Shown piece by piece: positions 15,865 through 62,130 of a stretch of 64,000 nucleotides of DNA (positions within the stretch are counted from its first letter, which is position 1; each line of letters starts with the position of its first letter). The notes beneath the pieces are model-generated. The model ran no database searches. It was not told where the DNA came from and saw only the letters and a program-made list of their open reading frames with translations. The DNA is from an uncultured Sphingomonadaceae bacterium. GTDB taxonomy: Bacteria; Pseudomonadota; Alphaproteobacteria; Sphingomonadales; Sphingomonadaceae. A program made the position numbers and the translations under genes. The stretch lies in contig CANMWO010000002.1 of the NCBI GenBank assembly GCA_947501695.1, forward strand, positions 573,327-637,326, written 5' to 3'.

Positions 15865-15876
15865 TTGTCCGGACAA
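15865..15876. promoter_or_regulatory. palindromic operator site 1 (TTGTCCGGACAA)
   Basis: Exact palindrome 21 bp upstream of ATG 15898; context aagTTGTCCGGACAAattt. Confidence 0.85.
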
Positions 15877-15897
15877 ATTTAACGAAGGATCATCCTT

Positions 15898-16704
15898 ATG
15901 TTTCTCACCAGCCTCTCCGCTTTGGCCCTCGCCGCCGGATCGCCGCAGACCCTTACCCTGGGCGAGCAGTTGCCGGGCGTCTTCACTAATGAGGAACAGG
16001 CCTATTTTGAAAAAGATGCGGGCCGGACTCCGCCGCCATGGATCGCGCTGAAAATTGAACAGCGAGGTTCCGGGCTCGTCGTCACCCGCACGGATGCCTT
16101 CGGCAAAGCGGTTGCGGCACCACTCACGGGGCTTGCTGCCACAGGCGTGCATCGCGACAGCCTGACATTGGGCAATTGTACCCGCAATTTTGATCGCACG
16201 GACACGGGCTGGGTCTATAGTAAGCTACAAAATAGAATGGCCTGTCGTCAGGATTATCAAATTACCGGCGTCAATGCCGACGGGCTGACCCTGCGTTTTG
16301 CCGATGGCACCGAAACCCAATTGAAGCGCGCCCGTCCGGTCGAATGCTGGGCCGCCGCGAAGAAGACCGAACCCAAGGCAGATGGCAGCCCGGACTGGCT
16401 GTTCGCCCAGAAATTAAGCCTGCATGATCAAGGAGGACGGGTCATGGTTGGTGGCGGAGACAGTGGCGCCGAACCGCTGATCCTGCGTATGCGGGCGGTC
16501 TATTGGCCCAAGCCCAGCACGAACCGGCCAAGCATGGTGCTCTATGTCCATAAGCCCGATAATCCCGATAGCGCCGTCAGCTACAGCTGGGCCGATATCA
16601 ATGCCAGCCGAGTTGGCTTGAACTTGCGCTGGATGCAGGCCAGTTGCACGATCAAAGGCGCCGAGCGTTCCTCCGATGTGACAAGCCAAAATTTTCGTGG
16701 CTGA
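15898..16704 (+). CDS. exported hypothetical protein
   Basis: Signal-peptide-like MFLTSLSALALAAG; C-terminal domain ...LHDQGG...SYSWAD...RVGLNLRWMQASCT; AAGGA RBS; directly behind an operator. Confidence 0.7.
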   Translation: MFLTSLSALALAAGSPQTLTLGEQLPGVFTNEEQAYFEKDAGRTPPPWIALKIEQRGSGLVVTRTDAFGKAVAAPLTGLAATGVHRDSLTLGNCTRNFDRTDTGWVYSKLQNRMACRQDYQITGVNADGLTLRFADGTETQLKRARPVECWAAAKKTEPKADGSPDWLFAQKLSLHDQGGRVMVGGGDSGAEPLILRMRAVYWPKPSTNRPSMVLYVHKPDNPDSAVSYSWADINASRVGLNLRWMQASCTIKGAERSSDVTSQNFRG

Positions 16705-17466
16705 TTATTTTGCCGGTGGTGTGAAAAGGGCCTCGTCTATCGCTGTATTCACTTTGGTTTCTGTCCAGAATACCTCGTTGGATTTGCGCCCGTCATAATA
16801 GAGCGTGACATGACGCGCCTGCAGCCAGCGCGGATCTGCCAGCCTTACGAAATCATCATAGACCCGCAGATGCCAACCCTTTGGGGTGCGAAAACCCATC
16901 GTCCGGATGGCGTGACTTTGTTGATCGATACCAAATAGCGTTTTGCCGCCCTTCGGGTCGGTAAGCTCCACCGTATAAAGCGCATGGCCGCCGACATCAT
17001 CATCCGGCAATCGGGTAGCAGTGAAACCGGGTTTGTCAGCCTGCCGGATGATCCCGAAACCGAAATTACTGGCCCAGAATTTTTCCGCTTCTGCCTTGGG
17101 TGTGATGCCGCGTTCTGTCCATGTTGTTTCCCCGTCGAAACCCACTTCGAAAATCAGCTTTTCGCCCTTTTTTGCTATAATCCTTACTTTGCCATCAGCA
17201 CCATGGGCGACGGTTCGGTTGGAATCAAATATCCGCCACATGCGATAGTCGCTTGCAACAGTGCGAGGGTGATGACCAGTCGCACCAAAGAAAATCGCAT
17301 GACCGGATAGTGTCAGCGAGCGAGCATTGGCCCAATCATCCCCGCCCGCAGCTTCCCGGGCCATGGACAATATGGCCGCACCGTCAGGTTCGCGCTCGGC
17401 GGCCGAAAGCGGTAACACAGCGACTATCAGTGCCATCAGCATCACGCTACGAAACAGACGAAACAT
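16705..17466 (-). CDS. exported hypothetical protein (LolA/lipoprotein-sorting-like beta fold, tentative)
   Basis: Signal peptide MFRLFRSVMLMALIVAVLPLSAA; beta-rich body (VGFDGETTW, TLFGIDQQSHAI); fold guess only. Confidence 0.6.
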   Translation of the reverse strand: MFRLFRSVMLMALIVAVLPLSAAEREPDGAAILSMAREAAGGDDWANARSLTLSGHAIFFGATGHHPRTVASDYRMWRIFDSNRTVAHGADGKVRIIAKKGEKLIFEVGFDGETTWTERGITPKAEAEKFWASNFGFGIIRQADKPGFTATRLPDDDVGGHALYTVELTDPKGGKTLFGIDQQSHAIRTMGFRTPKGWHLRVYDDFVRLADPRWLQARHVTLYYDGRKSNEVFWTETKVNTAIDEALFTPPAK

Positions 17467-17485
17467 GGGCAGCACTCCTATTTAG

Positions 17486-17497
17486 TTGTCCGGACAA
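17486..17497. promoter_or_regulatory. palindromic operator site 2 (TTGTCCGGACAA)
   Basis: Exact palindrome in the 74 bp divergent gap between 17466(-) and 17541(+). Confidence 0.85.
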
Positions 17498-17540: not shown

Positions 17541-18950
17541 ATGAACAATCAGACCTCTTCAATCAGCAGACGTGCTTTTGTTGGTGGGATGAGTGCATCA
17601 TTAATTGCCTGCGCCGCGCCGCGCCGAACCTGGAGCAAGACCACCGCTGATGTCATTATAGTGGGTGCCGGTCTGGCCGGATTGCACGCCGCGAGCCTGA
17701 TTGAAAACGCCGGCTATAAGGTCATCCTGCTCGAAGGGGCTGCGCATGCTGGGGGTCGTCTGCATACGCTTGACGATTTACCCGGCCAACCTGATGCAGG
17801 CGGCATTCAAATTGGTGCGTCCTATAAGCGTTTTCATAACATTGCCGATCGGCTGGGTGTAGAACGCTATGTCCCGCCGCCGTCGCCACGTGGCTCCTTA
17901 TACCATATTGATGGAATCCCTTTAACCGCAAAGCAGTGGTCAACGGCATTGCAGAACAAACTTGCGGCCCCGGAAAAGGCAACCCTGCCTGATCGCCTGT
18001 TTTTCTCCTACCTGAACAATCTGCCGAAGTTCGAAAATATCGCGGACTGGATGAAACCGGAAGCACAGGCCATTGACATCGCGCTAAGTCAATATTTGCG
18101 TGAACAGGGTGCCTCGGAAGAAGCGCTGCGGCTGATCAATGCCAATCTCAACGGGAACAGCATTGACCAACAATCGGCGTTGCACATGGCCCGATCGCTG
18201 GCGATGTTTCGCGCAAGCTCTGATCCGGTCCGCTACGTGCGCGGCGGATCACAGCGGATGACCGATGCCATGGCTGCGTCCCTGCGCAGCGAATTGCTGC
18301 TCAACAGCCCTGTCATGGCAATAAAGGATGAAGGCGATGGTATTGAGATCAGCCTTGCCGACGGACGCAGATTTGGCGCACGCCATGTCATCTGCACCGC
18401 TCCTTTTTCGACGATACGGAATATGACTATTGAAGCGGATTTACCGCAGGCGTTGCGCGCCATGATCACGCGGCTTCCTTATACACGCGCAAGCTTTGCG
18501 TATCTGTCGGCGGCAGAGGCTTTCTGGAAAAATGATGATCTGCCGGAAACTATTTGGTCTGATGATCCGATGCTCGGCAGAATGTTCGTGCTTGGCGATG
18601 ATCCTGCGATGGTGAAAGTCTGGCTCAACGGTCCCAGCGCAGATCTTGTCGACGCGATGGATGACGCCGCAGCCGGGGCGGTGATAATCCGCAAAATCGA
18701 AGAAGCGCGGCCTTCTGCCAAGGGTAAACTCAAATTTCTGAGGATGTTCAGCTGGCAGAAAAATAAATTTGCCCGCGGAATATATCATCATATCGGTACC
18801 GGTCAGGGCGCGACCTTGGCGCTGGCCACACAATATCGCGGACAACGCCTCCATTTTGCCGGCGAGCATCTGGCTCAGCAAAGCTCAGGTATGGAAGGCG
18901 CGCTGGAAAGCGGGCAGCGAACCGCTGAACATGTGCTTGCGACACTCTAA
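17541..18950 (+). CDS. Tat-exported flavin monoamine oxidase family protein
   Basis: SRRAFVGG twin-arginine signal; VIIVGAGLAGL...EGAAHAGGR; HFAGEH...SGMEGALESG. Confidence 0.88.
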   Translation: MNNQTSSISRRAFVGGMSASLIACAAPRRTWSKTTADVIIVGAGLAGLHAASLIENAGYKVILLEGAAHAGGRLHTLDDLPGQPDAGGIQIGASYKRFHNIADRLGVERYVPPPSPRGSLYHIDGIPLTAKQWSTALQNKLAAPEKATLPDRLFFSYLNNLPKFENIADWMKPEAQAIDIALSQYLREQGASEEALRLINANLNGNSIDQQSALHMARSLAMFRASSDPVRYVRGGSQRMTDAMAASLRSELLLNSPVMAIKDEGDGIEISLADGRRFGARHVICTAPFSTIRNMTIEADLPQALRAMITRLPYTRASFAYLSAAEAFWKNDDLPETIWSDDPMLGRMFVLGDDPAMVKVWLNGPSADLVDAMDDAAAGAVIIRKIEEARPSAKGKLKFLRMFSWQKNKFARGIYHHIGTGQGATLALATQYRGQRLHFAGEHLAQQSSGMEGALESGQRTAEHVLATL

Positions 18951-19840: not shown

Positions 19841-19842
19841 AA

Positions 19843-19868
19843 ACCCGCCGCCCTTTCAGGCAGCGGGT
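19843..19868. terminator. intrinsic terminator between convergent hydrolase and TonB receptor
   Basis: acccgccgcc-ctttca-ggcagcgggt hairpin with a preceding A-tract (U-tract on minus strand). Confidence 0.6.
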
Positions 19869-19889
19869 CTATACCAGTTTTTCGCTGCG

Positions 19890-22363: not shown

Positions 22364-22375
22364 TTGTCCAGACAA
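22364..22375. promoter_or_regulatory. operator site 3 (TTGTCCAGACAA)
   Basis: One central mismatch; 23 bp upstream of the TonB receptor ATG. Confidence 0.8.
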
Positions 22376-22411: not shown

Positions 22412-22423
22412 TTGTCCAGACAA
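22412..22423. promoter_or_regulatory. operator site 4 (TTGTCCAGACAA)
   Basis: Second copy 48 bp from site 3; context aatTTGTCCAGACAAattt. Confidence 0.8.
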
Positions 22424-22604: not shown

Positions 22605-22616
22605 TTGTCCGGACAA
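22605..22616. promoter_or_regulatory. operator site 5 (TTGTCCGGACAA)
   Basis: Exact palindrome 20 bp upstream of ATG 22637, at the head of a 9-gene + strand run. Confidence 0.85.
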
Positions 22617-22636: not shown

Positions 22637-22939
22637 ATGCCAGCCTATATGATTGTGACCGCTGCTATATCGGATCGCGATAAATTCATCGCAGGCTATG
22701 GCGCAGCTGCCGGCGCACTCGTCGAGAAATTTGGTGGGCGCTATGTGCTCCGTGGTCCCGGGGCGGAATTGCTGGAAGGTAGCTTTGGCGATGGCGCGTC
22801 AATGGTCATATCCGAATGGCCAGACAAAGCGGCCGTTTATAAATTCTGGAATAGCCCGGAATATCAGGAAGCAAAAAAGTTACGTGCCGATATCGCCGAA
22901 TGTCAGGTGCTAGTTATCGAAAGCCCGAAAATCGCATGA
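22637..22939 (+). CDS. DUF1330 family protein (dimeric alpha+beta barrel)
   Basis: MPAYMIV...YG...VEKFGGRYVLRG...EW...FWNSPEYQEAKKLR. Confidence 0.88.
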   Translation: MPAYMIVTAAISDRDKFIAGYGAAAGALVEKFGGRYVLRGPGAELLEGSFGDGASMVISEWPDKAAVYKFWNSPEYQEAKKLRADIAECQVLVIESPKIA

Positions 22940-23409
22940 CCGATATTATAAAACGAACGACCCTCATGGTCCGCGATGGCGACACCGCCTCGCATTGGTA
23001 TGAAACAGTATTGGGCATGACCAAATGGATGGATACGCCGTTCACGCTTTCCGGAACGCAATTGGCAGCCGGGAAGAAAGGTGATCAGACGCGCTTGATC
23101 ATATTGAAATGCGAACATGATATGATTGGCATGATCGGCCTGCTCGAATGGCTTGATCCCAAACAGGATGCACCCAAAGAGCTACCCACCGAGATTAAAT
23201 TTGGCGCCCCGGTATTCGTTGTCGCTTCCGAAGATGCCAAGGGCGCTGTCGAGCGCGCTCGCGCACTCGGGTCCGCAATCCACAGTGAACCGCGCGAATG
23301 GACCGTTACTGGCGCTGATGGCAAACAAAAGGACATGATCGGCTGCTCTTTCTGGGATCTGGACGGCTATTTCTTTGAGGTGAATCAAGTGGTTAAGGTT
23401 CATGACTGA
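22936..23409 (+). CDS. VOC family protein
   Basis: IKRTTLMVRD...WYETVLG, IGLLEW, FWDLDGYFFEVNQ; start set at ATG 22936 (ATGA overlap). Confidence 0.8.
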   Translation: MTDIIKRTTLMVRDGDTASHWYETVLGMTKWMDTPFTLSGTQLAAGKKGDQTRLIILKCEHDMIGMIGLLEWLDPKQDAPKELPTEIKFGAPVFVVASEDAKGAVERARALGSAIHSEPREWTVTGADGKQKDMIGCSFWDLDGYFFEVNQVVKVHD

Positions 23410-24504
23410 GTGACCGCCGCTGGTTCCTCTCTTGCCGATTTTAACAGGCTTGCCGCCGACAAGCAGATTGACGATGATGCAAATTATCAGTGGCGGGTTG
23501 CTGCACGGCCCGTTGGTAACGTCGTGCCATCGGACTTTGAGTGGGCAGTGACAGACATTCCCGAACCAGGCGATGGCGAAGTGCTGTTGAAAACCCATTA
23601 TCTCGGCCTTGCGCCCGTCATGCGTTTCTACATGCAGGGTACCGGTGCTGCTGGCGAGCGCGTGCTGGAACCCGGTGATGTAATCCATGGCCGCGGCGTC
23701 GCACAGGTCGTCAAATCCCGTCATCCTGACTGGCGCGAAGGCGAGATGGTGCAAGGGCAGATGGGTTGGCAAATCTACAAAGTCTCTCGCATGACACCGC
23801 AGGAGAAGTTTTTCCGGATGCCGCCCAATGGTCTGCCAGCAGCGCTCGGCTCAGGTGTGCTTGGCATGACCGGCCTGTCTGCTCATGCCGGATTATTCGC
23901 GTGCGGTGATCCCCGAAAGGGCGATCGGATGGTCTTGTCAGGGGCCGCAGGCGGTGTTGGATCCATGGTCAGTCAGCTGGCGGCCAATGTCGCAGACTGT
24001 GAGGTTATTGGCATGGCGGGAGGGCCCGAAAAATGCGCGTTCATTCTCGACCACGGCTGCTCGCAGGCGATTGATTATAAAGTGGAAGATATCGACGAAC
24101 GATTAGACATATTATGCCCCGACGGTATTGATTTATATTTCGACAATGTCGGCGGGGAAACGCTGGAATCCTGTCTCGAACGGCTGCGGCTCCATAGCCG
24201 GGTCGTGCTGTGTGGATCGATCAGCGAATATACCAGAGAAAAGCCGTTCAAACTTTCCAACTATACCCGGCTGCGCGCCACCGAAACGCGGATGCAGGGC
24301 TTTTTTGTTTATAATCATCTGGACCGCTGGGATGCGGTTATGGATGATCTGGCGGGATGGATTCACGACGGCAAGCTAAAACCGGTACAAGATGTCGAAC
24401 AGGGCTTTGAAAATATGCCACGCGCGCTCGCCAACCTTTACTATGGTCAGAATGTTGGCGTGCAATGTTGTTCGGTCCGGGGTGAGCCAGATAATTGGAT
24501 TTGA
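23410..24504 (+). CDS. NADP-dependent oxidoreductase (alkenal/ene reductase-like MDR)
   Basis: GVLGMTGLSAHAGL, LSGAAGGVGSMVSQLA, YFDNVGG, RVVLCGSISEY; paralogue of 1644..2645. Confidence 0.9.
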   Translation: MTAAGSSLADFNRLAADKQIDDDANYQWRVAARPVGNVVPSDFEWAVTDIPEPGDGEVLLKTHYLGLAPVMRFYMQGTGAAGERVLEPGDVIHGRGVAQVVKSRHPDWREGEMVQGQMGWQIYKVSRMTPQEKFFRMPPNGLPAALGSGVLGMTGLSAHAGLFACGDPRKGDRMVLSGAAGGVGSMVSQLAANVADCEVIGMAGGPEKCAFILDHGCSQAIDYKVEDIDERLDILCPDGIDLYFDNVGGETLESCLERLRLHSRVVLCGSISEYTREKPFKLSNYTRLRATETRMQGFFVYNHLDRWDAVMDDLAGWIHDGKLKPVQDVEQGFENMPRALANLYYGQNVGVQCCSVRGEPDNWI

Positions 24505-24516
24505 GGGAGATTAGCT

Positions 24517-24969
24517 ATGGGTGAGAAACAACAGACGCGGTTTCAGCGCGGCAATTTTGTGGTTGCAGATATCGACCGGGCGCTGACATTTTATCGCGAT
24601 GTGCTGGGTTTTGAGGAGACGTTTCGCAAAGGCCATAATCCCGACAGCTATTCGTTTCCGGTATTCGAAATTCCCGAAGAGGCGGAGATTGGGTTTTCGA
24701 TCCTTTCGCTTCCTGGTCAGCCCCGTGTCATGGCTCTTTCAGAGGTTAAAAATGTTCCGTTAGAACCTGTGCCCCATCCAAGACGCGGCGCCATTGTGCT
24801 CGACGTTGCCGATCCCGACGCGGTTATGGAGGGGGCACGAAAATTGGGCTTGCAAGTTTATGAAGAAGGGCGGCTCGAAACGCATGATGGGCGGATCGGG
24901 CGCGAGATTGGCATTGTCGATTTTGACGATAATCTGGTGGTTATCTATCTGATTCCGGACGCGCAATAA
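24517..24969 (+). CDS. VOC family protein
   Basis: FQRGNFVVADIDRALTFYRDVLG, DFDDNLVVIY. Confidence 0.8.
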   Translation: MGEKQQTRFQRGNFVVADIDRALTFYRDVLGFEETFRKGHNPDSYSFPVFEIPEEAEIGFSILSLPGQPRVMALSEVKNVPLEPVPHPRRGAIVLDVADPDAVMEGARKLGLQVYEEGRLETHDGRIGREIGIVDFDDNLVVIYLIPDAQ

Positions 24970-27124: not shown

Positions 27125-27423
27125 AATCCTATGCCATCTATTGCACCGACAAACCGGATACCGCTCAAAAACGGCTGGATGCGCGCGACGCGCATTTCGC
27201 GCATATAGAAAAGACGCTGGATAATTTGCTCATTGCCGGTCCGCTGCTAGACGAAGCCGGCGTGACCATCGGATCACTCTTGGTTGTCAAAGCCGACAAT
27301 GCGGAACAGGCTCGGAAACAGTTGGAGGCCGACCCCTATTTCAGCGCTGATATCTGGGTCGATATCCGGATAACGCCGTTCATGCCAGCCGCTGGCGATT
27401 GGATTGGCGGCAAGATATGGTAG
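27121..27423 (+). CDS. YciI family protein (dimeric alpha+beta barrel)
   Basis: RLDARDAHFAHI, AGPLLD...GSLLVVKA...DPYF. Confidence 0.9.
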   Translation: MKSYAIYCTDKPDTAQKRLDARDAHFAHIEKTLDNLLIAGPLLDEAGVTIGSLLVVKADNAEQARKQLEADPYFSADIWVDIRITPFMPAAGDWIGGKIW

Positions 27424-27452
27424 GCTTTCACAATTGCTGAGGAGATCAGAAA

Positions 27453-28055: not shown

Positions 28056-28064
28056 ATAGTGCAA

Positions 28065-29467: not shown

Positions 29468-29468
29468 G

Positions 29469-52149: not shown

Positions 52150-52155
52150 AGCGGG

Positions 52156-53310
52156 ATGGATTTTGACCGCAGACAGATGATGGCCGCGGCGCTTTGCGCC
52201 ACTGTCACGCCGCCTGTTTTTGCCGCGACCGGAAAGAGTGATAAAGACAAAACTATGACCGAAACTAAAAACTACGCCGCCGTCGCGATGCAATTGGCCG
52301 CGCGATCGATCGAAAAGACACCGGATAAAGCGGCGGCCCGCGCACAGATGTTGGCAATGATTGGTGAGGTTGAAACCAAAATCCGTTCAGCCACCATTTT
52401 CATCCAGCAATATGGCGGCAGTCCAGTCAAATTGGTGGTGCTTCCAGAATATTTGCTGACTAGCTATCCTGGACGCATTTCCATTCCGGATTTTGCGGAC
52501 AAGGCCGCGCTGGAAGCCGATGGACCAGAATATGAAGCCCTTGGCGCGATGGCCCAGCGGCTGAAAATGTTCGTTGCAGGCAATGCCTATGAGGTAGACA
52601 GCAATTTCCCCGGCCTCTATTTTCAGGCGAGCTTCGTCATCGCGCCTTCCGGTGATGTGGTACTGCGCTATCGTCGGCTCAATTCCATGTTCGCGCCCAC
52701 ACCCCATGATGTGTGGACAAAATATCTCGACATCTATGGGCTAGACGGTGTCTTCCCAGTAGCCAAAACAGAGATCGGCAACCTCTCGGCCATTGCGTCA
52801 GAAGAAATACTCTATCCCGAAATCGCGCGCGCGCATGCGCTGCGCGGAGCAGAGGTTTTCGTGCATAGTTCTTCGGAAATCGGATCACCGCTGGATACAC
52901 CCAAAGATATCGGCAAGCGTGCTCGGGCACAGGAAAACATGGCCTATGTCGTGTCCGCCAATACCGCTGGCATTGAAAACACCACGTTGCCGCTGGCCTC
53001 GGCTGACGGCAACAGCATGATAGTGGATTATAAAGGCCGAGTAATGGCTGAATCGAACAGCGGAGAGACGTTTACCGCTTTTGCCGATATTGACATTGGT
53101 GCTCTGCGCGCCGCCCGCCGTAAACCGGCCATGACCAATTTTCTCGCGCGCCAGCGGCTGGATCTGTTCGCTGCGACCTATAGCGATTTATCCGTACAAA
53201 AAGCCGATGGTTTGATCGAGAACAATGACATCATCTCTCCGAACCGCGACTATTTTCTCCGTACCCAGGAAGAAACGATCGAACGGATGATAAAGGAGGG
53301 TTTGATATGA
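52156..53310 (+). CDS. nitrilase/carbon-nitrogen hydrolase-fold protein with altered triad, twin-Arg-like N-terminus
   Basis: VVLPEY, LRYRRL, IASEEILYPE..R..ALRGAEV, GNSMIVDYKG; DRRQMMAAAL signal. Confidence 0.82.
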   Translation: MDFDRRQMMAAALCATVTPPVFAATGKSDKDKTMTETKNYAAVAMQLAARSIEKTPDKAAARAQMLAMIGEVETKIRSATIFIQQYGGSPVKLVVLPEYLLTSYPGRISIPDFADKAALEADGPEYEALGAMAQRLKMFVAGNAYEVDSNFPGLYFQASFVIAPSGDVVLRYRRLNSMFAPTPHDVWTKYLDIYGLDGVFPVAKTEIGNLSAIASEEILYPEIARAHALRGAEVFVHSSSEIGSPLDTPKDIGKRARAQENMAYVVSANTAGIENTTLPLASADGNSMIVDYKGRVMAESNSGETFTAFADIDIGALRAARRKPAMTNFLARQRLDLFAATYSDLSVQKADGLIENNDIISPNRDYFLRTQEETIERMIKEGLI

Positions 53311-54551
53311 GCACGAAAACCTCGACTGACCAGAAACTGGACGTAGCGCCCCCTTATAATGCGGTGGCCCGGCACGGTGTATCGCCACAGCCGTCCCATG
53401 ACGAAGTGGCGCGCTTTGATTTCCTCGCCAATTTCAACAAATTTCTCTCCGGCGCGCTCGGGCCCGGCAACAAACTTACTTATGACAAGCGCGTACAACC
53501 TGCTTTCGAGAAAGAACATGGCCGCGCACCCAAGGACCGGTTCGAAATCCGCCACGCAATGAACAATGATCCGTTCCACACATTCTGGTCAGCCCTGAAA
53601 CGCAATTCGATGGAAATGCGCCAGCAAAATGGTCGCGCGATGGTGTTGCGCCAGATTGACGAGCTTAGCGCCAAGGCACGCCAGTATAATGAAGGCCGTG
53701 ACACGCTGGAACTAAATCCAGAAATCGAAGTCCCACGCTATCAAAACGCCGTCGACATACATTGCATGCCCGGTAGCTATCATGGCGAAGAATTGGCTGG
53801 CGATGTGTCAGCCGGCGCCAATTATGACTGCGGAATATTCGCAACAACGGCAGGAGGCCTTGGCGCTCTATCCGATGGCGGCGGCGCAGCCTTGGTGGAA
53901 TGGATCAAGCAGCAGCGCCCCGGATGGGAACCGTGCCGCGTTCTCGACATCGGCACTACAGTTGGTCACAACATCGTGCCGCTGGCACTGGCTTTTCCCA
54001 ATTGCGAGTTTATCGCCATCGACACAGCGGCCCCGATTTTGCGCTATGCCCATGCCCGGGCGCAGTCGCTCGGCGCAACCAATATCAAGTTTATTCAGGC
54101 CAATGCTGAGGATCTATCTCGCTGGGAAGACGGCACGTTTGACTGGGTTCAAACTACGATGTTCCTGCATGAGACAAGCGGCAAAGCGCTACCAAAAATC
54201 ATCGCTGAGGGCTATCGTGTGCTGGCCGATGATGGCCTGATGTTCCATCTTGAACAGCCGGAATATTCCGATGAAATGCCGCTCTATGAGCAATTTATCC
54301 GCGATTGGGATGCGTTTAACAACAACGAGCCATTCTGGTCCTCGATGCATGCGCTCGACATGAAAACCGTCATGAACGAAGCCGGCTTTGCGGCAAATGA
54401 GCTGTTTGAAAGCGGTGTCCGCGCCGTAGTCGATACGGATATCTTCCCCGAAGCCGCTACCGGCGATGACGAAGATCATGGCCGAGCAGCCTATTGGCAT
54501 GCTTATGGAGCCTGGAAAAATAGCGATCAGATGCAGGAAGCAGCGGAGTAG
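53307..54551 (+). CDS. class I SAM-dependent methyltransferase-fold protein
   Basis: VLDIGTTVGH, IDTAA.ILRYA, FDWVQTTMFLHE, large N-terminal extension with HCMPGSY. Confidence 0.82.
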   Translation: MSTKTSTDQKLDVAPPYNAVARHGVSPQPSHDEVARFDFLANFNKFLSGALGPGNKLTYDKRVQPAFEKEHGRAPKDRFEIRHAMNNDPFHTFWSALKRNSMEMRQQNGRAMVLRQIDELSAKARQYNEGRDTLELNPEIEVPRYQNAVDIHCMPGSYHGEELAGDVSAGANYDCGIFATTAGGLGALSDGGGAALVEWIKQQRPGWEPCRVLDIGTTVGHNIVPLALAFPNCEFIAIDTAAPILRYAHARAQSLGATNIKFIQANAEDLSRWEDGTFDWVQTTMFLHETSGKALPKIIAEGYRVLADDGLMFHLEQPEYSDEMPLYEQFIRDWDAFNNNEPFWSSMHALDMKTVMNEAGFAANELFESGVRAVVDTDIFPEAATGDDEDHGRAAYWHAYGAWKNSDQMQEAAE

Positions 54552-54554
54552 GAC

Positions 54555-54917
54555 ATGACAGAAGAAGTTTTCGACTGGATGGCAGCGGCCAATAAAAAAG
54601 CCAAAGGCAAACGACCAGAATATTTTGATGATCCCGAAGACGAACGGATGCTGTCGATCTTGATGGCCGTCGTCGGAGAAGTATCAGTGCTGCGCGAGCG
54701 CATGGATACCGTCGAACGCCTGCTCGATGCCAACGGTACGATCTCGCGTAACGATATTGAAAATTACGCGCCGGATAAACAAGCCGCATATGAGCGCGGT
54801 GCGATGATCCGCGAATATATATACCGCGTTATGCGCGGCCCGCATCAAATGGTGCAGGAACTGGAGCAAGTCGAGCCACCGGTTGAAGAGGTGAGCCGCG
54901 AACTCAAGGACATTTAA
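54555..54917 (+). CDS. small helical hypothetical protein (partner of methyltransferase)
   Basis: RPEYFDDPEDERMLSILMAVVGEVSVLRERMDTVERLL; homologous to 56651..56932. Confidence 0.75.
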   Translation: MTEEVFDWMAAANKKAKGKRPEYFDDPEDERMLSILMAVVGEVSVLRERMDTVERLLDANGTISRNDIENYAPDKQAAYERGAMIREYIYRVMRGPHQMVQELEQVEPPVEEVSRELKDI

Positions 54918-55645
54918 TGCAACACCGTATTATCGAAGGTCGTCTGGAATATACGTCACGCAAACCAGAAATGGCTGGGCAGAATCGCGGTTTTGAAACC
55001 TTCATGTTTACACATCATCACGACGGCAAAGTGACGATGCGCGCGCATTGCGAGATATATGAGCCAGAACCGACGGTAATGCGGGACATTATCTACGCAA
55101 TTGATGAAGACAATCAACCGATGGACTGTCATGTCCGGCTGACAGTCGGCGACAGCTTCATGGGTTCTGGTTGGATGCGGTTTGACGGAACGCATATCGA
55201 AATGGAATCCTATGGACCATCGATCGGACGTCTGTCCCAACGCGTAGAAGCGCAATTACCACTGGATGGTTTTGGCACGCACCCGATTGTCTCGGACGGT
55301 TATATGCTATCGACCAAGGACTGGGACAAAGACACAAAGCGCCTGCTCAATTGTTACCTGCCCTCCCCCGATCATCGCGGTGCCACGCCGCCGCAGATCG
55401 CTCAGGTAAAAATTGGAGCGGTCTATCTGGGAAAAGAGGAAGTAACCGTGAAAGCGGGAACCTTTCAATGCCAACATCTTCAATTTGTTGACGATGCCAG
55501 CATCGTTCCGGGGACCGGTGGCATGGCTGGCGAACATCCCGCCTATGATGTCTGGATCACCGATGACGAAGACGGCATATTTGTGCAGGGCGGCGTCGGT
55601 GGTTACATGATGACCTGGTACGAGCTGGTCGAACTTAAACGGTAA
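54917..55645 (+). CDS. hypothetical beta-rich protein
   Basis: 242 aa ORF coupled (TAATG) to the upstream gene; no family recognised. Confidence 0.68.
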   Translation: MQHRIIEGRLEYTSRKPEMAGQNRGFETFMFTHHHDGKVTMRAHCEIYEPEPTVMRDIIYAIDEDNQPMDCHVRLTVGDSFMGSGWMRFDGTHIEMESYGPSIGRLSQRVEAQLPLDGFGTHPIVSDGYMLSTKDWDKDTKRLLNCYLPSPDHRGATPPQIAQVKIGAVYLGKEEVTVKAGTFQCQHLQFVDDASIVPGTGGMAGEHPAYDVWITDDEDGIFVQGGVGGYMMTWYELVELKR

Positions 55646-56654
55646 TCATGATCTTGCCCATATGGGCACCGTTCTCCAGATGGGTGAACGCTGCGGGCGC
55701 ATCGCCAAAATCAAACACACTTTCGACCAGAAGTTCGATGTTGTTTTGGGCAACCACATCCAGCGCCTGCTGCAGCATTTGACGATCCCCGGACGCAATA
55801 CCCTTGATCGTTATATTCTTGCCTATCAGTGCGCCTTGACTGGCGCTGGATTGGTCCTGGGGTGTTCCTGAAAGCGCTCCAAGCGATCCAATGCGGGCAT
55901 TGACAGCGCAGGCCGCCACTGTCTCGCCCATCGCTGGAAATCCCAGCGTATCGACTACCACATCTGCGCCGCGACCACCTGTGGCTTCGAGCAACGCTGC
56001 GGCCCAATCGGGCCTGTCGCGATAATTTATGCCGAAATCAGCGCCCATTTCCTTTGCGCGAGAGAGTTTTTCGTCACTGGATGACGTGATAGCAAAATCC
56101 ATTCCCATCGCCTTCGCCAACTGCAGGGTAAATATCGATACACCGCCGGTTCCTTGCGCGAGTACAAGATTACCCGGTTTGGCATCTCCAAACGACATCA
56201 TGGCGTGCCAGACCGTGCTGCCAACGACGGAGAAGGTTGCCGCGCTGCTATCACTGACATTTTCAGGCACTATGATAGCGGCATTGGCCGGCAAAATAAT
56301 TTTCTCAGCCAGCCAGCCATTGGCCGTCACGCCAAGGTCCTTGCCAAATACCGCAAAGCTATAAGCGCCATCCAGCCAGGTCGCGAAATGTGGTGCCATA
56401 ATGCGCATGCCAACGTCCAGTCCCGAAACATCTGCACCGACAGCTTCAATCACACCGACGCCATCAGATAAAGGCACCCGATCTTCAGGCAAGTCCGTGC
56501 CATAATCGCCGCGCAGCACCATCAGGTCACGATAGTTGAGACCGGCTGCCGAGACCTTAATCAGAATTTCTCCGGGACCAGGCTCCGGTTCGGGATGATC
56601 TACTAGCTGCAGTCCGCCAATGCCGGTCCGTGAACCCATTTGCCATGCCTTCAT
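55635..56654 (-). CDS. zinc-type alcohol dehydrogenase-like MDR oxidoreductase
   Basis: LNYRDL, PLSDGVG, QGTGGVSIF.LQLAKA, TSSSDEKL, HMGKIMI. Confidence 0.9.
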   Translation of the reverse strand: MKAWQMGSRTGIGGLQLVDHPEPEPGPGEILIKVSAAGLNYRDLMVLRGDYGTDLPEDRVPLSDGVGVIEAVGADVSGLDVGMRIMAPHFATWLDGAYSFAVFGKDLGVTANGWLAEKIILPANAAIIVPENVSDSSAATFSVVGSTVWHAMMSFGDAKPGNLVLAQGTGGVSIFTLQLAKAMGMDFAITSSSDEKLSRAKEMGADFGINYRDRPDWAAALLEATGGRGADVVVDTLGFPAMGETVAACAVNARIGSLGALSGTPQDQSSASQGALIGKNITIKGIASGDRQMLQQALDVVAQNNIELLVESVFDFGDAPAAFTHLENGAHMGKIMITV

Positions 56655-56932
56655 GTGTCGTCACTCCCTTGCTCGCGCAGCGGCGCGAAAATACGATCAA
56701 TAAACTTTTGTAGCTTGGCTTCTCGGTCGGCCGCAGACGCTTCCAATCCTTCGAGCGCCATCAGTCGCTCTTCCTGAACCCACATTTCTTGCGCCATGTT
56801 CATAGCTACAGCGACAAAGCGATCCATGCCCGGATCGTCGAAAAATTGTGGCTTACCGTCGGGGCCGTAAATATCCTTCGGCGTATCATCCGGCCTAAAC
56901 GCCGGACCGGGCTCCTCGGTTTCTGCGCTCAT
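56651..56932 (-). CDS. small helical hypothetical protein (partner of second methyltransferase)
   Basis: KPQFFDDPGMDRFVAVAMNMAQEMWVQEERL; start at ATG 56932 overlapping the upstream TGA. Confidence 0.72.
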   Translation of the reverse strand: MSAETEEPGPAFRPDDTPKDIYGPDGKPQFFDDPGMDRFVAVAMNMAQEMWVQEERLMALEGLEASAADREAKLQKFIDRIFAPLREQGSDDT

Positions 56933-58116
56933 CGTTTCCATGCTCCGAAACCAAACCACATGATACCTTCCGCCAGCCGTCCGGTGGTTTCGCTATCAAC
57001 AGCGTTAGCGCTCTCATCCGCTATCGCTTGCGCAACGGCTTCCTCACCGTAAATGCCAATGCTGGGCACAACGAACTGGAAATAGTCATCGGCGGCAAAA
57101 CCACCCGCTTCGCAAAGCGCTGGAGGGCTCTCATCGCGATAGCCTTTGTAGAACGGCTCCGAGTTATACCAACTGTCCCAATCGAGATAAAAGCCGTCAA
57201 AGGCGTTCATCTGGTCATTAGGCGGCAACTCCATATGAAGCAGCAGACCGCCAGGCTTGAGCACGCGATAGGCTTCTTTAAACGCGGCTGCACGGGCCTT
57301 TTTAGAGAGCTCGTGAAGGAACATTGAAGAGAAGACGAGGTCAAAGCTGTCGTCCGGATAATCCAGCGCATCGGCGGACATTTGCGCGAAATCGACGTCC
57401 TGACCCTGCATTTTAGCGCGAGCCGAGGCATAGCGTAATCCGCCTGCCGCAGCGTCGATCGCTTCAATCTTCGCATCGGGATAAGTCTGTTTCCATGGTA
57501 ACGTATTGTGACCAATGGTGCAGCCAGTATCTAAAATGCTCTGCGGTTTAAAGTCCGGATACTTGCCCTTCACATAGGCGGCCATGGATAGACCAATATC
57601 ATCCAAGTTAGAGCCCATCAGACCCATGGAGAACACAGCCAACCCCTGATCATAAACTGCGCCGGCCTCCAGCGATTCCCCGCCCCGGGTATAGCTGCCC
57701 GGCATCAGGTGCACCTCTATCGCATCGACATTGCGCGGAATATCTAGATCGGGATTCAGTTTGAGCGCACCGGGCCGGGCCGCAACTTTCTGCGCTTCTG
57801 CTTCGAGCCGCTCGATATCACGGGCCACGACATCGCCCGAGGCGTGCCAGACCATTTTCTGAGCCTGCACCCGCATCGACGAGTAAATATTAAATGCCGG
57901 ATCACCGCGCAGGGCCTGATGTGCTTCGTTGCTGGTTTCCGGTGCGCGGCCTTTGTCACGGGCAAAAGCCGGTGCGGCACGCTTGTCATAAGCGGTACGC
58001 AAATCGCCTGCGAGATCGTTGAGAATAAACGCTCTGATGCCCGACACAAAGCGTCCACGCGCCGCTTCCTCTGCGGTCAATTCCGGTTTCATCGGATGTT
58101 GTAATTCTACGCCCAT
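56929..58116 (-). CDS. class I SAM-dependent methyltransferase-fold protein (paralogue of 53307..54551)
   Basis: HLMPGSY, AGAVYDQG, ILDTGCTIGH, FDLVFSSMFLHE; start at ATG 58116. Confidence 0.83.
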   Translation of the reverse strand: MGVELQHPMKPELTAEEAARGRFVSGIRAFILNDLAGDLRTAYDKRAAPAFARDKGRAPETSNEAHQALRGDPAFNIYSSMRVQAQKMVWHASGDVVARDIERLEAEAQKVAARPGALKLNPDLDIPRNVDAIEVHLMPGSYTRGGESLEAGAVYDQGLAVFSMGLMGSNLDDIGLSMAAYVKGKYPDFKPQSILDTGCTIGHNTLPWKQTYPDAKIEAIDAAAGGLRYASARAKMQGQDVDFAQMSADALDYPDDSFDLVFSSMFLHELSKKARAAAFKEAYRVLKPGGLLLHMELPPNDQMNAFDGFYLDWDSWYNSEPFYKGYRDESPPALCEAGGFAADDYFQFVVPSIGIYGEEAVAQAIADESANAVDSETTGRLAEGIMWFGFGAWKR

Positions 58117-59537
58117 CAGAAATTCTCCTCTGCAAAAGCTTCTATTCGCGCTGCCTCGCCCGATTGCCGGATCAGCGCCTGTTTGCGGAAAAAGCGCATC
58201 AATCCGCTTGCCCCCATCCGTGATGCACCAAGCCCGGAATGGCCAAAGCTCGATTTCTCCGCTTCCCAAACCATCGAGGTCAAGGAACCATCATTAATCG
58301 ATACTGCACCCGCATTGAGGCGCGATGCAACTATTTCAGCCTCTTGAGCTGATCCTCCAATGACCGCTGCAGACAAACCGAACTGGCTGTGATTGGCCAT
58401 CATCACGGCTTCATCCACATCGTCAAACACCCGTACAGGGATAACGGGTCCGAAATTCTCATCAGAAATTACCGTCATCGATGAGGTCACATTGGTCAGG
58501 ATCGTTGGCCGCAAATAAAGACCACCACCGAGTTTTTCGACTTTGCCGCCCGAAAGCAACTCCGCGCCTTTTTTAACCGCATCATCAATCTGAGACTGCG
58601 CTATCTGCGCCTGTTTCTCAAAGATAAACGGCCCGATATGGCCTTGGTTGATATCAGGATGATTGAGCTGCACCGCCTCTGCCTGAGCGACCAGACTGGT
58701 GAGGAAAGGGTCTGCGATTGCCTGGGCTACATAGACCCGCTCAATCGACTGACAGGCCTGACCAGTGTTGACGATACTCGCCCTAAGCGCCGTCGCGGCC
58801 GCCTTTTCGGGATCGGCACTGGCAAGAACGATCATCGGGTCTTTGCCGCCTAGTTCCAGACTTGCCGGAATAAAAGCTCTCGCCGCCGCTTGACCGACGT
58901 TGCGCCCCGTGGCGACCGATCCGGTAAAGCAAATATAGTCGACATGGTCGACCATCGCAGCACCCGTCGCACCGTCGCCTTCGATGATCGACAGCACAGT
59001 CGCCAGTTCCGGAACTTTCTGCACGGCTTCCATCAAAGGTTTGATAAAGCGCGGTGTCACTTCAGATGGTTTTACCAACACCGCCGATCCCGCCATCAGT
59101 GCCGGAATCGCGTCGATCAATGCCAGTGTCATCGGGAAGTTCCACGGGCTGATCACGCCAACCAAGCCAAAGGGCACCAGTCGCGTCGAAGTAGTGATCG
59201 TCGGCACCGATGTTGGTTGATCTACCGGCTGGCCATCGGCCATGAGCTGTGGCGCCATAGCGGCCCAGCGTCTTATCTGCCCCGGTACGCCCGCTGCTTC
59301 AATTTTTGAGATACCGCCGCGTCCGGTATCAGCAGTCAGGGCCGGAATGATATCGCCCAGATTGGCCTCTATCGCATCAGCCCATTGCAACAATATCCCG
59401 CCACGCGCTTCCGGTGTTTTCGCAGCCCAATTTTTTTGTGCATCGCGAAGCCGCTTTGCTTCGTCGGCAACCGCCTCAACGTCTAGGGGCGTGATTGCAT
59501 AGTCTGCTTTGCCCGTACGCGGATTGCGTATCTTCAT
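58116..59537 (-). CDS. aldehyde dehydrogenase
   Basis: VISPWNFP, VKPSE.TP, FTGSVATG, LELGGKDP, NTGQACQSIER, DENFGP. Confidence 0.94.
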   Translation of the reverse strand: MKIRNPRTGKADYAITPLDVEAVADEAKRLRDAQKNWAAKTPEARGGILLQWADAIEANLGDIIPALTADTGRGGISKIEAAGVPGQIRRWAAMAPQLMADGQPVDQPTSVPTITTSTRLVPFGLVGVISPWNFPMTLALIDAIPALMAGSAVLVKPSEVTPRFIKPLMEAVQKVPELATVLSIIEGDGATGAAMVDHVDYICFTGSVATGRNVGQAAARAFIPASLELGGKDPMIVLASADPEKAAATALRASIVNTGQACQSIERVYVAQAIADPFLTSLVAQAEAVQLNHPDINQGHIGPFIFEKQAQIAQSQIDDAVKKGAELLSGGKVEKLGGGLYLRPTILTNVTSSMTVISDENFGPVIPVRVFDDVDEAVMMANHSQFGLSAAVIGGSAQEAEIVASRLNAGAVSINDGSLTSMVWEAEKSSFGHSGLGASRMGASGLMRFFRKQALIRQSGEAARIEAFAEENF

Positions 59538-59577
59538 TGCTGTGCCTTCATTTTTGGGCCTTCATTTCTGGGCCTTC
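59534..59577 (-). repeat. three tandem 14-bp units (AGGCMCARMAATGA) at the deacetylase/ALDH junction
   Basis: Minus strand reads aggcccagaaatga aggcccaaaaatga aggcacagcaatga. Confidence 0.8.
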
Positions 59578-60485
59578 CAGCTATCGAGTATCGCATCACC
59601 CCGTGCGAACCCGATATCATTGTGCTCAGCAACGCCGGCAATCAACTTCTCAAAACTGCTAATGCGATAGGGTAGACCCATAATATAAGGCGTTAGGTGC
59701 ATGGGTAGCATTCGCCCGCCATTTTGCTCCGCCTCCGCGAGCAACCAATTGGCCGCATCGGTCATCTGCTGTGCATAGCTGTCAACCGATTGCTGCTGGA
59801 CATTGATGATCTGACGATCCGATAGTTCGTGGTTGAGCGGGATATTGGTAATCGCTCCCGAATCTGTCTGAAACGCATAAGGCAATTCGTCATTGGCCCA
59901 ATCACACATATAATCGACACCGGCCTCGGCGAGCAATTTTGCGGTGTTGAAACTTTGCGAACGCGCTATCGACAACCAGCCGCGTGGGCGCGTTCCGATC
60001 ACTTTTTCCAGCGCGGTGAGCGAACCTTCGATTAGCGCTTTCTCATCCGCTTCAGCCAGTCCGCTCGCAATAGTGCCGTTCATGTCGGTGCTATGCGCGA
60101 TAATCTCATGGCCGCCGGAGATGATGTCCTCAATCAACTGCGGATAGCGCTGGGCGATGACGCTGTTGGTCGCGACCGAAATCTTCGCGCCAACCTTCTC
60201 AAACGCACCAAGCAACCGGTAAATCCCGATCCGCGTGCCATATTCGCGCGCGGTATAATGGCGATAGTCGGGATAAGCGGTCTGCATATGCCCCGGCGCG
60301 CGGAACGGATTGTCGTTGGGCACCATCGGGAAATATTCGAGGGAGATGACCGGCCATATCATCAGCTTTTTGTCGCCCGGCCATTGCACCGGCTTGCGAT
60401 CAAACAGATTGCTGTACGGATAATAGTCATGGTCCATTCCGTGGCGGCGCTTGGGATAGTCGAGATAGCTGGCATCAAGGCTCAT
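59562..60485 (-). CDS. polysaccharide-deacetylase-fold (PuuE/PgdA-like) amidohydrolase
   Basis: VISLEYF, REYGTRIGIYRL, HEIIAH, PRGWLS, DWANDELP, HLTPYIMGLPYR. Confidence 0.87.
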   Translation of the reverse strand: MSLDASYLDYPKRRHGMDHDYYPYSNLFDRKPVQWPGDKKLMIWPVISLEYFPMVPNDNPFRAPGHMQTAYPDYRHYTAREYGTRIGIYRLLGAFEKVGAKISVATNSVIAQRYPQLIEDIISGGHEIIAHSTDMNGTIASGLAEADEKALIEGSLTALEKVIGTRPRGWLSIARSQSFNTAKLLAEAGVDYMCDWANDELPYAFQTDSGAITNIPLNHELSDRQIINVQQQSVDSYAQQMTDAANWLLAEAEQNGGRMLPMHLTPYIMGLPYRISSFEKLIAGVAEHNDIGFARGDAILDSWKAQK

Positions 60486-61375
60486 GATAAGTCTCCCGTC
60501 TGTTTGCGGAAGGCGTCAACTATATCACCAGCCTTGGTAATCCATGCCCGACCATCAGCCGCAATATGTTCAAGCACTGCTTCAAACGGACCAATGCGGT
60601 GAGGCTGTCCGATCAGATAGCTGTGCAGCGGGATGCACATCACCGTGCCGGACTGCGCGCCCTCTTCAGCGAGCCGGTCATATTGCCTGATCAGCGTATC
60701 GGCATATTCCCGCGGGCTCATGTTATAGATAAAGAACCCATAATGATCATTGACCTCTAGGCTGTAGGGTATCGCCGTCAGCTGGCCGGATTTCACCTTC
60801 ACGTCAGTCGGCTGGTCATCATGATAAAGGTCACAGGTATAATCCATGCCATATTCCGCGAGCAGGTCGAGCGTGCGCGGCGTGTGGGTCAGCGCTGGCG
60901 CCAGCCAGCCTTTGATCCGTTGGCCGGTAGCGCGCTGAACTGTTTCAATCGAATCCTCAATGATCGCGCGTTCCTGCGCCTCATCCATTCCATAAGAATA
61001 GCGTGTGTTGTAAATGCCGTGGCTGAAAAACTCCCAACCGCGCTGATTGGCATCCTCGACCACTTCGGGAATATGGTCACATAACGCCACGGACAAGCTG
61101 ACAGATCCCGGAAAACCATGCTTGGTCATCATCTCCGCCATGCGCCAATGTGACACGCGATTGGCATGATCGCGATGGCTGTAGCCGACCACATCGGGAT
61201 GAGGCTTTGGCCAACTCTTCCGATGCGGATTGACCGCCGGGTCGAGTTCATAAAATTCCAAATTGGGCGCGACCCAAACAGCGCAGGTTTTGCCGTCAGG
61301 CCACTCGATTTTCGGACGCCCACGATAGGGCGCATAATCAAATAGTCCCGGATCAGATTTCTGCACGTCAGACAC
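60482..61375 (-). CDS. polysaccharide-deacetylase-fold (PuuE/PgdA-like) amidohydrolase (tandem paralogue)
   Basis: VAPNLEFY, RDHANRVSHWR, WEFFSHG, IKGWLAP, DLYHDDQP, PYSLEVND, LHSYLIGQPHR. Confidence 0.87.
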   Translation of the reverse strand: MSDVQKSDPGLFDYAPYRGRPKIEWPDGKTCAVWVAPNLEFYELDPAVNPHRKSWPKPHPDVVGYSHRDHANRVSHWRMAEMMTKHGFPGSVSLSVALCDHIPEVVEDANQRGWEFFSHGIYNTRYSYGMDEAQERAIIEDSIETVQRATGQRIKGWLAPALTHTPRTLDLLAEYGMDYTCDLYHDDQPTDVKVKSGQLTAIPYSLEVNDHYGFFIYNMSPREYADTLIRQYDRLAEEGAQSGTVMCIPLHSYLIGQPHRIGPFEAVLEHIAADGRAWITKAGDIVDAFRKQTGDLS

Positions 61376-62055
61376 TAGCGCGCCTCCAACCAGTCAATCA
61401 CTGTCTGCACTGGCTCGACATCAGCATATTTAATCTGCAAGTCGGTCAGATTGGCAAAATGATAGCTTTCATGCTTGTCCGCACATGTTTCAATCGGCAC
61501 GATTGTGCGATAACCATAGCTTAAAGCATCCACCGCTGTGGCCCGAACACAACCGGATGTAGAACCGCCGGTGACAATCACCGTATCCACTTTATGCCAC
61601 GTCAAATAGCTCGCCAGTTGTGTTTCAAAAAAGGCGCTGGGCATGCGCTTGGTATATTGCAGGTCATTGGCATCGACCTCGCAACGCGGATCAAGTTTAT
61701 GCCGCTCGCTGTCATATTTGATATTCTGGAGCGAATCTTCGGTATCGGTGCGCGTGCCCCAGACACCGGCATCGCCTGCATCCGCTTTATAAGCGACACG
61801 ACTCCAGATCACCGGCATGGCCTTTGCTCGTGCCAAAGCCGATATCTGATTAATATAGTCAATCTGCTTCGGATCGGTCTCATAAGCGGTTTTGAACATA
61901 TCCATCCGGGTATAGGCTTGTTGTACATCAACATTGACGATGGCGAGCTTTTCTCCGAAACCGAATTTCTTGCGCGCTGGATTGCCAATCAACTCTTCAA
62001 AAATTTCCTTGGCCGTACGCCCGTCCTCAACCATTTTTGTGCCTTTGACGTCCAT
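61375..62055 (-). CDS. isochorismatase-family amidohydrolase (maleamate amidohydrolase NicF / N-carbamoylsarcosine amidase-like)
   Basis: NVDVQ (Asp), KRMPSAFF (Lys), TGGSTSGCVRATAVDA (Cys); start 62055 or 62034. Confidence 0.88.
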   Translation of the reverse strand: MDVKGTKMVEDGRTAKEIFEELIGNPARKKFGFGEKLAIVNVDVQQAYTRMDMFKTAYETDPKQIDYINQISALARAKAMPVIWSRVAYKADAGDAGVWGTRTDTEDSLQNIKYDSERHKLDPRCEVDANDLQYTKRMPSAFFETQLASYLTWHKVDTVIVTGGSTSGCVRATAVDALSYGYRTIVPIETCADKHESYHFANLTDLQIKYADVEPVQTVIDWLEAR

Positions 62056-62104
62056 AAAGTTTCTCTCCGGAATCGATAAAAATGTAATAAACAACAGAAA
62101 AGAC

Positions 62105-62130
62105 TTGTCGAGACAAATTTGTCCGGACAA
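62105..62130. promoter_or_regulatory. tandem operator sites 10 and 11 (TTGTCGAGACAA; TTGTCCGGACAA)
   Basis: 62105-62116 (2 mismatches) and 62119-62130 (exact) in the 86 bp divergent gap. Confidence 0.85.

Follow-up and report, generated by a model that had tools for sequence, protein, structure and literature searches.

The palindromic motif and its occurrence

The stretch of DNA analysed here (the window) comprises 64,000 nucleotides from an uncultured Sphingomonadaceae bacterium (contig CANMWO010000002.1, positions 573,327 to 637,326). Its part from 15.9 to 64 kb is an island of catabolic and transport genes that contains twelve copies of a palindromic motif, the predicted operator of a GntR-type regulator encoded within the same island (gntR). 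The exact 12-mer TTGTCCGGACAA occurs six times, at 15865, 17486, 22605, 43050, 49273 and 62119, compared to 0.01 occurrences expected from dinucleotide-preserving shuffles of the 64 kb window. Near-copies at 22364, 22412, 44834 and 46535 each carry one mismatch to TTGTCCGGACAA, and the copy at 62105, TTGTCGAGACAA, carries two. Allowing up to two mismatches, 17 matches were observed in the window versus 2.2 expected. An earlier interpretation made from the letters of this DNA (the sequence-only reading) had listed six exact copies and five near-copies, and all eleven were present where it had placed them. Its count was short by one. Using a position weight matrix (PWM) derived from the window's own sites, the eleven sites scored 22–33 bits, against a maximum of 5.9 bits at unrelated positions of the window; a twelfth, weaker site, ATGTACGGACAA at 37274–37285, scored 14 bits and matched the core at 10 of 12 positions.

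The PWM extended the motif beyond the 12-mer. At a distance of two bases from the core, an A on the 5' side and a T on the 3' side were invariant (24 of 24 half-sites). The base in between was T or G on one side and A or C on the opposite side, which gives a 16-bp palindrome, A-K-TTGTCYRGACAA-M-T (K, T or G; M, A or C), as the functional motif; one base further out the preference for A or T is weak. Conserved flanks had been proposed previously and do exist, but the adjoining positions are K and M rather than W. No operator was found in positions 1–15864, as had also been reported; the sole match in that region with two or fewer mismatches (8977) lies in coding sequence and has a background-level PWM score. 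This absence had been taken as the left boundary of the system, but it is merely where the first site happens to be.

Transcription units headed by the sites

Start codons in the window were corrected by means of ribosome-binding sites, signal peptides, public gene calls and full-length tblastn matches. Sites 17486, 22364, 43050, 46535 and 62105/62119 fall inside the longest possible open reading frames, but are intergenic when the best-supported starts are used. The operator-to-start gaps across the eleven sites were 11, 19, 20, 21, 22, 23, 33, 43, 45, 49, 52, 70 and 71 nt; the intergenic placement 11–72 bp before start codons given by the sequence-only reading was thus nearly exact after correction of the starts (11–71 nt). 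Between 15.9 and 64 kb, about 13 transcription units, with about 46 genes in all, are preceded by these sites.

Site O1 (15865–15876, exact core) lies 21 nt 5' of the ATG at 15898 of a gene encoding a secreted 268-aa protein of unassigned family (unk268). O2 (17486–17497, exact core) is located within a 74-bp divergent gap, 19 nt from the leftward ATG at 17466 (minus strand) of a secreted 253-aa protein (unk253) and 43 nt from the rightward ATG at 17541 (plus strand) of a flavin amine oxidase with a twin-arginine translocation (Tat) signal, which is followed by an alpha/beta hydrolase gene. O3 (22364–22375) and O4 (22412–22423), both TTGTCCAGACAA and 48 bp apart, are 23 and 71 nt, respectively, 5' of the ATG at 22340 (minus strand) of TonB-dependent receptor 1 (TBDR1). 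O5 (22605–22616, exact core) is 20 nt 5' of the ATG at 22637 and heads a nine-gene plus-strand operon (22637–28568) in the order DUF1330, glyoxalase, alcohol dehydrogenase (ADH), glyoxalase, major facilitator superfamily (MFS) transporter, hydrolase, YCII, CMD and SnoaL. The weak site O6 (37274–37285, ATGTACGGACAA, 14 bits) is 53 nt 5' of the gntR ATG and coincides with codons 10–13 of a divergent prpD-like gene, the first gene of a nine-gene minus-strand operon (28565–37312). The gntR gene itself (37339–38100, plus strand) encodes a 253-aa HutC-subfamily GntR protein, the proposed cognate repressor.

O7 (43050–43061, exact core) lies within the 115-bp divergent gap between the HpcH and DUF1838 genes. 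To its left, 33 nt away, is the ATG at 43016 (minus strand) of an operon encoding an HpcH-type lyase, MaoC, an acyl-CoA dehydrogenase and two CoA-transferases, and to its right, 70 nt away, is the ATG at 43132 (plus strand) of a secreted DUF1838 protein. O8 (44834–44845, ATGTCCGGACAA) is 45 nt 5' of the ATG at 44788 (minus strand) of a 228-aa membrane protein (unk228), and O9 (46535–46546, TTGTCTGGACAA) is 52 nt 5' of the ATG at 46599 of TonB-dependent receptor 2 (TBDR2). O10 (49273–49284, exact core) is 22 nt 5' of the ATG at 49307 and heads a plus-strand operon (49307–55645) encoding an MFS transporter (MFS2), an FAD-linked oxidase, a CN-hydrolase, a methyltransferase-like protein and two unknowns. 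O11 (62105–62116, TTGTCGAGACAA) and O12 (62119–62130, exact core) are paired with a 14-bp offset. O11 is 49 nt 5' of the ATG at 62055 (minus strand) and heads an operon (55635–62055, minus strand) with genes for an isochorismatase, two polysaccharide-deacetylase-like proteins, an aldehyde dehydrogenase (ALDH), a methyltransferase and an ADH. O12 is 11 nt 5' of the ATG at 62142 of an alpha/beta hydrolase gene whose operon extends past the window.

Terminator-like hairpins followed by T-runs were found at 19841–19870 (after the convergent genes abH1 and TBDR1), 44067–44091 (after DUF1838) and 49200–49228 (after TBDR2), which supports the proposed limits of the transcription units. A contig overlapping the right end of the window (L156, 1–9914; related loci and contigs are designated by L numbers) showed that the operon starting at 62142 runs on beyond it, with downstream genes for a 166-aa protein, aconitase-type large and small subunits, an HMGL-like lyase, a family-III CoA-transferase, an FAD flavoprotein and an NmrA-like protein. 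This extension resembles a second CoA-dependent branched-acid module. Further operators were not found in the 10 kb past the right end covered by L156. At the other end, window positions 1–15800 contain a different gene set without the palindrome: an acyl-CoA dehydrogenase, a Kelch-repeat protein, a metallo-beta-lactamase-fold protein, E1 alpha/beta dehydrogenase, a LuxR-type regulator, a Rieske oxygenase alpha subunit, a GST, ThuA and an AMP-ligase.

The GntR protein and other regulators in the window

The gntR product contains a GntR winged helix-turn-helix domain (PF00392, residues 19–81, E 6.7e-17) and a UTRA domain (PF07702, residues 122–244, E 5.3e-16). It aligned over its full length with the solved structures of NagR/YvoA and DasR (4u0v/4wwc, 2wv0 and 4zs8; E 1e-15 to 2e-9). 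The best NCBIfam matches were the HutC, PhnF, PhnR and TreR models, every one of them well below its cutoff; the score against the HutC model TIGR02018 was 90.6 bits, compared to an equivalog cutoff of 220. No hutU, hutH, hutI or hutG genes were found in the window. By its domains and model scores, the protein is assigned to the HutC subfamily of GntR regulators, but is not HutC itself. The earlier identification of a HutC-type regulator at 37339 agrees with the domain content and the structural alignments.

The other regulators in the window are of the LysR type (45457–46445) and the LuxR type (6946–7812), the latter being outside the regulon. Four further proteins considered as alternative regulators (unk228, unk268, unk253 and DUF1838) were rejected as they are membrane or secreted proteins rather than DNA binders. 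The LysR gene is located between the sites at 44834 and 46535, a position that would be compatible with the LysR protein binding the palindrome. We consider this highly improbable, since no LysR homologue was found in loci L018–L032, yet the sites before unk228, TBDR2 and MFS2 persist there. Where the gene is present its product is 45–58% identical, compared to more than 85% for the neighbours, and no site occurs in the divergent gap of the LysR gene, where a LysR box (T-N11-A) would be expected.

The gene on the other side of that gap encodes a 156-aa protein of unknown family (unk156), the divergent pair occupying 44864–46445. The pair, which is missing from many related loci, looks like a separate local control module inside the island.

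Conservation of sites and regulator in Sphingomonadales

A search with one genome per species identified 27 orthologous loci, spanning Parasphingorhabdus, Sphingorhabdus, Allopontixanthobacter, Novosphingobium, Sphingosinicella and Croceicoccus, in which the regulator is 48–89% identical to that of the window. On this basis the window is assigned to a Parasphingorhabdus-like sphingomonad. Three further orthologues from Sphingobium, Erythrobacter and a JGI genome (57–59% identity, GC content 64–68%) showed the same site pattern, giving about 30 orthologous loci with a GC content of 50–69%. The exact palindrome was found at the HpcH/DUF1838 gap in nearly all of the 27 loci, with more copies before unk228, TBDR2 and MFS2. 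Throughout 596 kb of orthologous loci, every PWM match of at least 14 bits was situated before an orthologous gene or at the start of gntR, and the operator-to-start distance was kept for several targets (21–22 nt for MFS2 and 30–52 nt for HpcH). A scan of orthologous loci had been suggested in the sequence-only reading, and it showed that the palindrome is kept before the same target genes even when the gene order is rearranged. In Croceicoccus, for example, with a GC content of 68%, a regulator only 48% identical and a scrambled gene order, sites occur at the gap between the genes for ALDH and an alpha/beta hydrolase (abH3), just 3' of gntR, and ahead of the isochorismatase operon.

In close relatives (L007–L017 and L033) the island genes are mostly 85–99% identical to those of the window. 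Outliers are the amidase (32201–33412) at 57–59%, the second PrpD (36083–37312) at about 70% and the LysR protein noted above; among these relatives, an amidase of the window type is present in L009 only (90%). This pattern suggests single-gene allelic replacement or recombination inside a conserved operon. A megablast comparison of 36–44 kb of the window with plasmids yielded no match.

A site at the 5' end of the regulator gene

In several orthologous loci (L018, L021, L023, L026, L027 and L030) ATGTCCGGACAA falls on the start codon of gntR and encodes Met-Ser-Gly-Gln. Variants of this start-codon copy are ATGTCCAGACAA in L019 and L020, and ATGTCCGGAAAA in L022, L024 and L025. In the window and its closest relatives the copy in the start region has decayed to ATGTCTGGGAGA or ATGTCCGGGAGA, and a 10/12 site is found in codons 10–13 of the divergent prpD-like gene (window, L009, L010 and L033). 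At the same prpD position Novosphingobium (L029) has an 11/12 or 12/12 core, and a 12/12 core deeper within the 5' portion of the prpD-like coding sequence was found in L158 (Sphingobium) and L159 (JGI genome). These comparisons indicate that most orthologous regulators keep a predicted site at or near their own 5' end, and that its position has shifted between lineages.

The sequence 5' of the gntR ATG in most orthologues consists of TTGCGT, a 17-nt spacer, TAAGAC or TAAGAT, 6 nt and the ATG (in the window, 37286–37341, the hexamer is TAAGAC), although part of this conservation reflects the prpD coding sequence on the opposite strand. The ATG codons of prpD (37312) and gntR (37339) are separated by only 26 bp, and no Shine-Dalgarno sequence precedes the gntR ATG. 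We predict that the gntR mRNA is leaderless and that the ancestral operator spanned +1 to +12.

Occurrences in metagenomes

A metagenome scan for the 18-mer AAKTTGTCCGGACAAMTT returned at least 120 loci, in which the following proportions describe a sample rather than a census. Outside Bacteroidota, 41 of the 64 matches listed were in contigs with genes homologous to those of the window's regulon, in nearly every case within 400 bp of the site. Neighbours in these 41 contigs (GC content 0.39–0.70, mostly above 0.55) included isochorismatase/alpha-beta hydrolase, methyltransferase-like, unk228/TBDR, HpcH/DUF1838, HapK/SDR and others, and in many of these contigs the isochorismatase gap retained the pair TTGTCGAGA...(14 bp)...TTGTCCGGACAA. 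Another 56 of the matches listed were in Bacteroidota contigs (GC content 0.41–0.50). Here the 18-mer sits at the core of a nested GGACAAATT repeat situated between unrelated genes (SusD, GH43, permease, OMP). Judged from gene context, the 18-mer outside Bacteroidota is tied to HutC-type regulators and to the gene set of the window, and the Bacteroidota copies are something else.

In Bacteroidota, AATTTGTCCGGACAAATT forms the core of a nested ACACGGACAAATTGAATTTGTCCGGACAAATTGTCCGG... repeat in L039, L046, L051–L053, L055 and about 50 more (e.g. L146:5893 and L142:9599), often 100–200 bp from contig ends. By its structure and surroundings this element looks like an intergenic repeat of the REP (repetitive extragenic palindrome) or MITE (miniature inverted-repeat transposable element) type, unrelated to the GntR system.

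The placement of the Bacteroidota repeat between unrelated genes, often near contig ends, raises the question of whether the palindrome as a whole is a REP-like or mobile intergenic repeat without a specific regulator, a possibility that the sequence-only reading had itself named as counting against its proposal. For the sphingomonad lineage this is extremely unlikely: in the window and the 596 kb of orthologous loci the sites are present only before orthologous genes, several targets keep their start distances, and the sites do not share flanks beyond 18 bp.

In three of the 23 remaining listed loci (L044, L125 and L133) the site adjoins genes for GntR+UTRA proteins that are 27–32% identical to the regulator of the window, so that more than one orthologous group has this specificity. 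The palindrome might by the same token be the site of another factor encoded outside the window, such as a paralogous HutC-type or global regulator, with the local GntR protein merely one of its targets. We regard this as quite unlikely. A local GntR orthologue was present in every genome locus with sites, across rearrangements and a GC content of 50–69%, and a site was found at the regulator's own start in most of these loci, while two non-orthologous GntR loci (L034 and L035) contained no site.

Relation to known GntR-type systems

The window's regulator shares the architecture of a GntR winged helix-turn-helix plus UTRA domain with NagR/YvoA of Bacillus subtilis and DasR of Streptomyces, which are its closest solved structures, although overall identity is low. 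NagR and DasR are dimeric repressors of multi-operon sugar-amine regulons and recognize palindromic operators with a GT...AC core. Their operator, of the dre core GGTCTAGACC type, their effectors, N-acetylglucosamine 6-phosphate (GlcNAc-6-P) and glucosamine 6-phosphate (GlcN-6-P), and their target genes differ from those of the window. HutC, whose model is the best NCBIfam match, is a local repressor of catabolic operons that is induced by a pathway intermediate and binds TGT...ACA-type palindromic operators; the window protein differs from it by a score far below the equivalog cutoff and the lack of hut genes nearby. As in HutC-type systems, the window operator is a short palindrome with a GT...AC core, is found at the regulator's own and target promoters, and is co-conserved with the regulator.

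The closest parallel to the sequence itself comes from MscA (Ms5630/MSMEG_5630) of Mycobacterium smegmatis, a 245-aa protein classed as a HutC-subfamily GntR regulator (PMC2018728, Table 2). Its own promoter contains a box, box2, that is identical to TTGTCCGGACAA; the shift in electrophoretic mobility shift assays survived deletion of box1 or box2 singly and was lost when both were deleted, and box2 was called the main MscA binding motif by its authors (PMC11711680). This paper was the sole bacterial precedent found in a literature search for the 12-mer and the 10-mer. The match to box2 links this very sequence to DNA binding by a HutC-type protein, and is at the same time a warning that such a protein can act positively. 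The two systems have in common the HutC-subfamily class, the identical 12-mer core and a site at the regulator's own promoter. MscA is, on the other hand, actinobacterial and was reported as a Cu2+/oxidation-sensitive activator of an 'antioxidant' cluster, acting at one promoter with two different boxes, whereas the window system has 12 sites, 13 units, repressor-like positions and a catabolic island. The HutC-type interpretation of the GT...AC palindrome in the sequence-only reading gains from both the co-conservation with orthologues and the match to box2 (PMC11711680), for what is a predicted site.

Proposed mode of regulation

Taken together, these observations make it likely that the palindrome is the operator of the GntR protein encoded at 37339–38100; that this protein acts purely as a repressor we hold with somewhat less confidence. 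One GntR dimer would bind to each copy of the palindrome, and the pairs 62105/62119 and 22364/22412 would each hold two. The operators would lie on or just downstream of core promoters, such that bound GntR blocks RNA polymerase at about 13 units. Through the site at its own 5' end GntR would control itself and the divergent prpD-like operon, and binding of the pathway substrate or an intermediate in the UTRA domain would release the repressor.

The positions of the sites bear on this mechanism in several ways. In six units the distance from operator to start is 11–23 nt and includes the ribosome-binding site, which places the transcription start within or upstream of the operator, as expected for a repressor. 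At 17486 a single operator lies in the 74-bp divergent gap, and at 43050 the operator occupies a promoter spacer that serves two divergent units. When the HpcH/DUF1838 gaps of ten lineages were aligned, a single conserved block emerged, with the operator at its centre, filling the 17-nt spacer of the conserved promoter-like pair TTCACA...TAAAGT. Next to this block is AGTCAA; its reverse complement, TTGACT, is a possible -35 element for the leftward operon.

Activation, or dual regulation, is the alternative in which GntR binds the same sites with a different outcome, as has been reported for MscA, which raises expression from its own promoter (PMC11711680). The sites 33–71 nt from starts (43050, 44834, 46535, 62105 and 22412) could also be activator positions. 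Nevertheless, we think this reading unlikely. The six operators 11–23 nt from a start with a ribosome-binding site in between leave no room for a downstream promoter, and the operator at 43050 fills the spacer between -35-like and -10-like hexamers. Well-studied members of the HutC subfamily, for example NagR, DasR and HutC, are repressors.

Several observations weigh against local GntR repression as the explanation for the palindrome. Besides the activity reported for MscA, the site proximal to gntR in the window is weak (10/12) and within coding sequence. A scan for E. coli-type promoters gave a match at only one operator, 43050, and was otherwise uninformative for this alphaproteobacterium; overlap with promoters is for that reason mostly argued from distances. 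A search for RNA sequencing runs returned DNA-type or contig-only runs alone. A second HutC paralogue of like specificity may exist elsewhere in the genome. Finally, the occurrence of the 18-mer within the unrelated Bacteroidota repeat means that its letters alone do not identify the GntR system.

Gene content of the island and the putative pathway

Pfam and NCBIfam scans of the window proteins identified, in addition to the two TonB-dependent receptors, the two MFS transporters and the Tat-signal flavin amine oxidase, several alpha/beta hydrolases, an amidase, a CN-hydrolase, an isochorismatase-type hydrolase and three polysaccharide-deacetylase/PuuE-like proteins. The units with operators thus include enzymes that process amides and amines. 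Other island enzymes are an FAD-linked oxidase, an ALDH, ADHs, two PrpD-family proteins and a PaaK-like ligase. The CoA operon, with two family-III CoA-transferases, an acyl-CoA dehydrogenase, a MaoC hydratase and an HpcH/RipC-like lyase, resembles in its annotated genes an itaconate/mesaconate-type route of C5-dicarboxylate breakdown. No island enzyme reached an NCBIfam equivalog cutoff; the best lead, for HpcH, was the RipC/Ccl itaconate lyase, at 231 bits compared to a cutoff of 375.

The N-terminus of the flavin amine oxidase (window 17541–17640) contains the twin-arginine signal SRRAFVGG, and the enzyme is probably periplasmic. Signal peptides were also found in unk268, unk253 and DUF1838. 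Part of the pathway seems for these reasons to be extracytoplasmic, which fits the presence of two TonB-dependent receptors. A nicotine-like route, considered on account of the Tat-signal amine oxidase, ALDH, alpha/beta hydrolase and isochorismatase-type amidase, was dropped, as the annotated genes include neither a molybdenum hydroxylase nor an HspB-type enzyme.

Our tentative interpretation, held with slightly less than even confidence, is that the regulon delimits an undescribed multi-operon pathway consisting of about 46 genes and, beyond the window, the operon with the aconitase-type hydratase and HMG-lyase-like protein. The pathway would take up a nitrogen-containing, probably alga-derived compound through the two TonB-dependent receptors, would proceed by a C5-dicarboxylyl-CoA route and would be shared by marine and soil Sphingomonadales. 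In the same interpretation, the regulator's own operator would have moved between the start codon of a probably leaderless gntR mRNA and the coding sequence of the prpD-like gene.

Implications

As a mechanism, a local repressor with palindromic operators and autoregulation is textbook; the density of the sites and their conservation are striking. That a TTGTCCGGACAA box is common to several distant HutC-type clades suggests a widely shared recognition code. For the organisms, several sequencing runs associate island-bearing sphingomonads with algae, and the motif supplies a conserved gene list for a large, uncharacterised catabolic island. The main use of the regulon is as a guide to this conserved and uncharacterised catabolic pathway.

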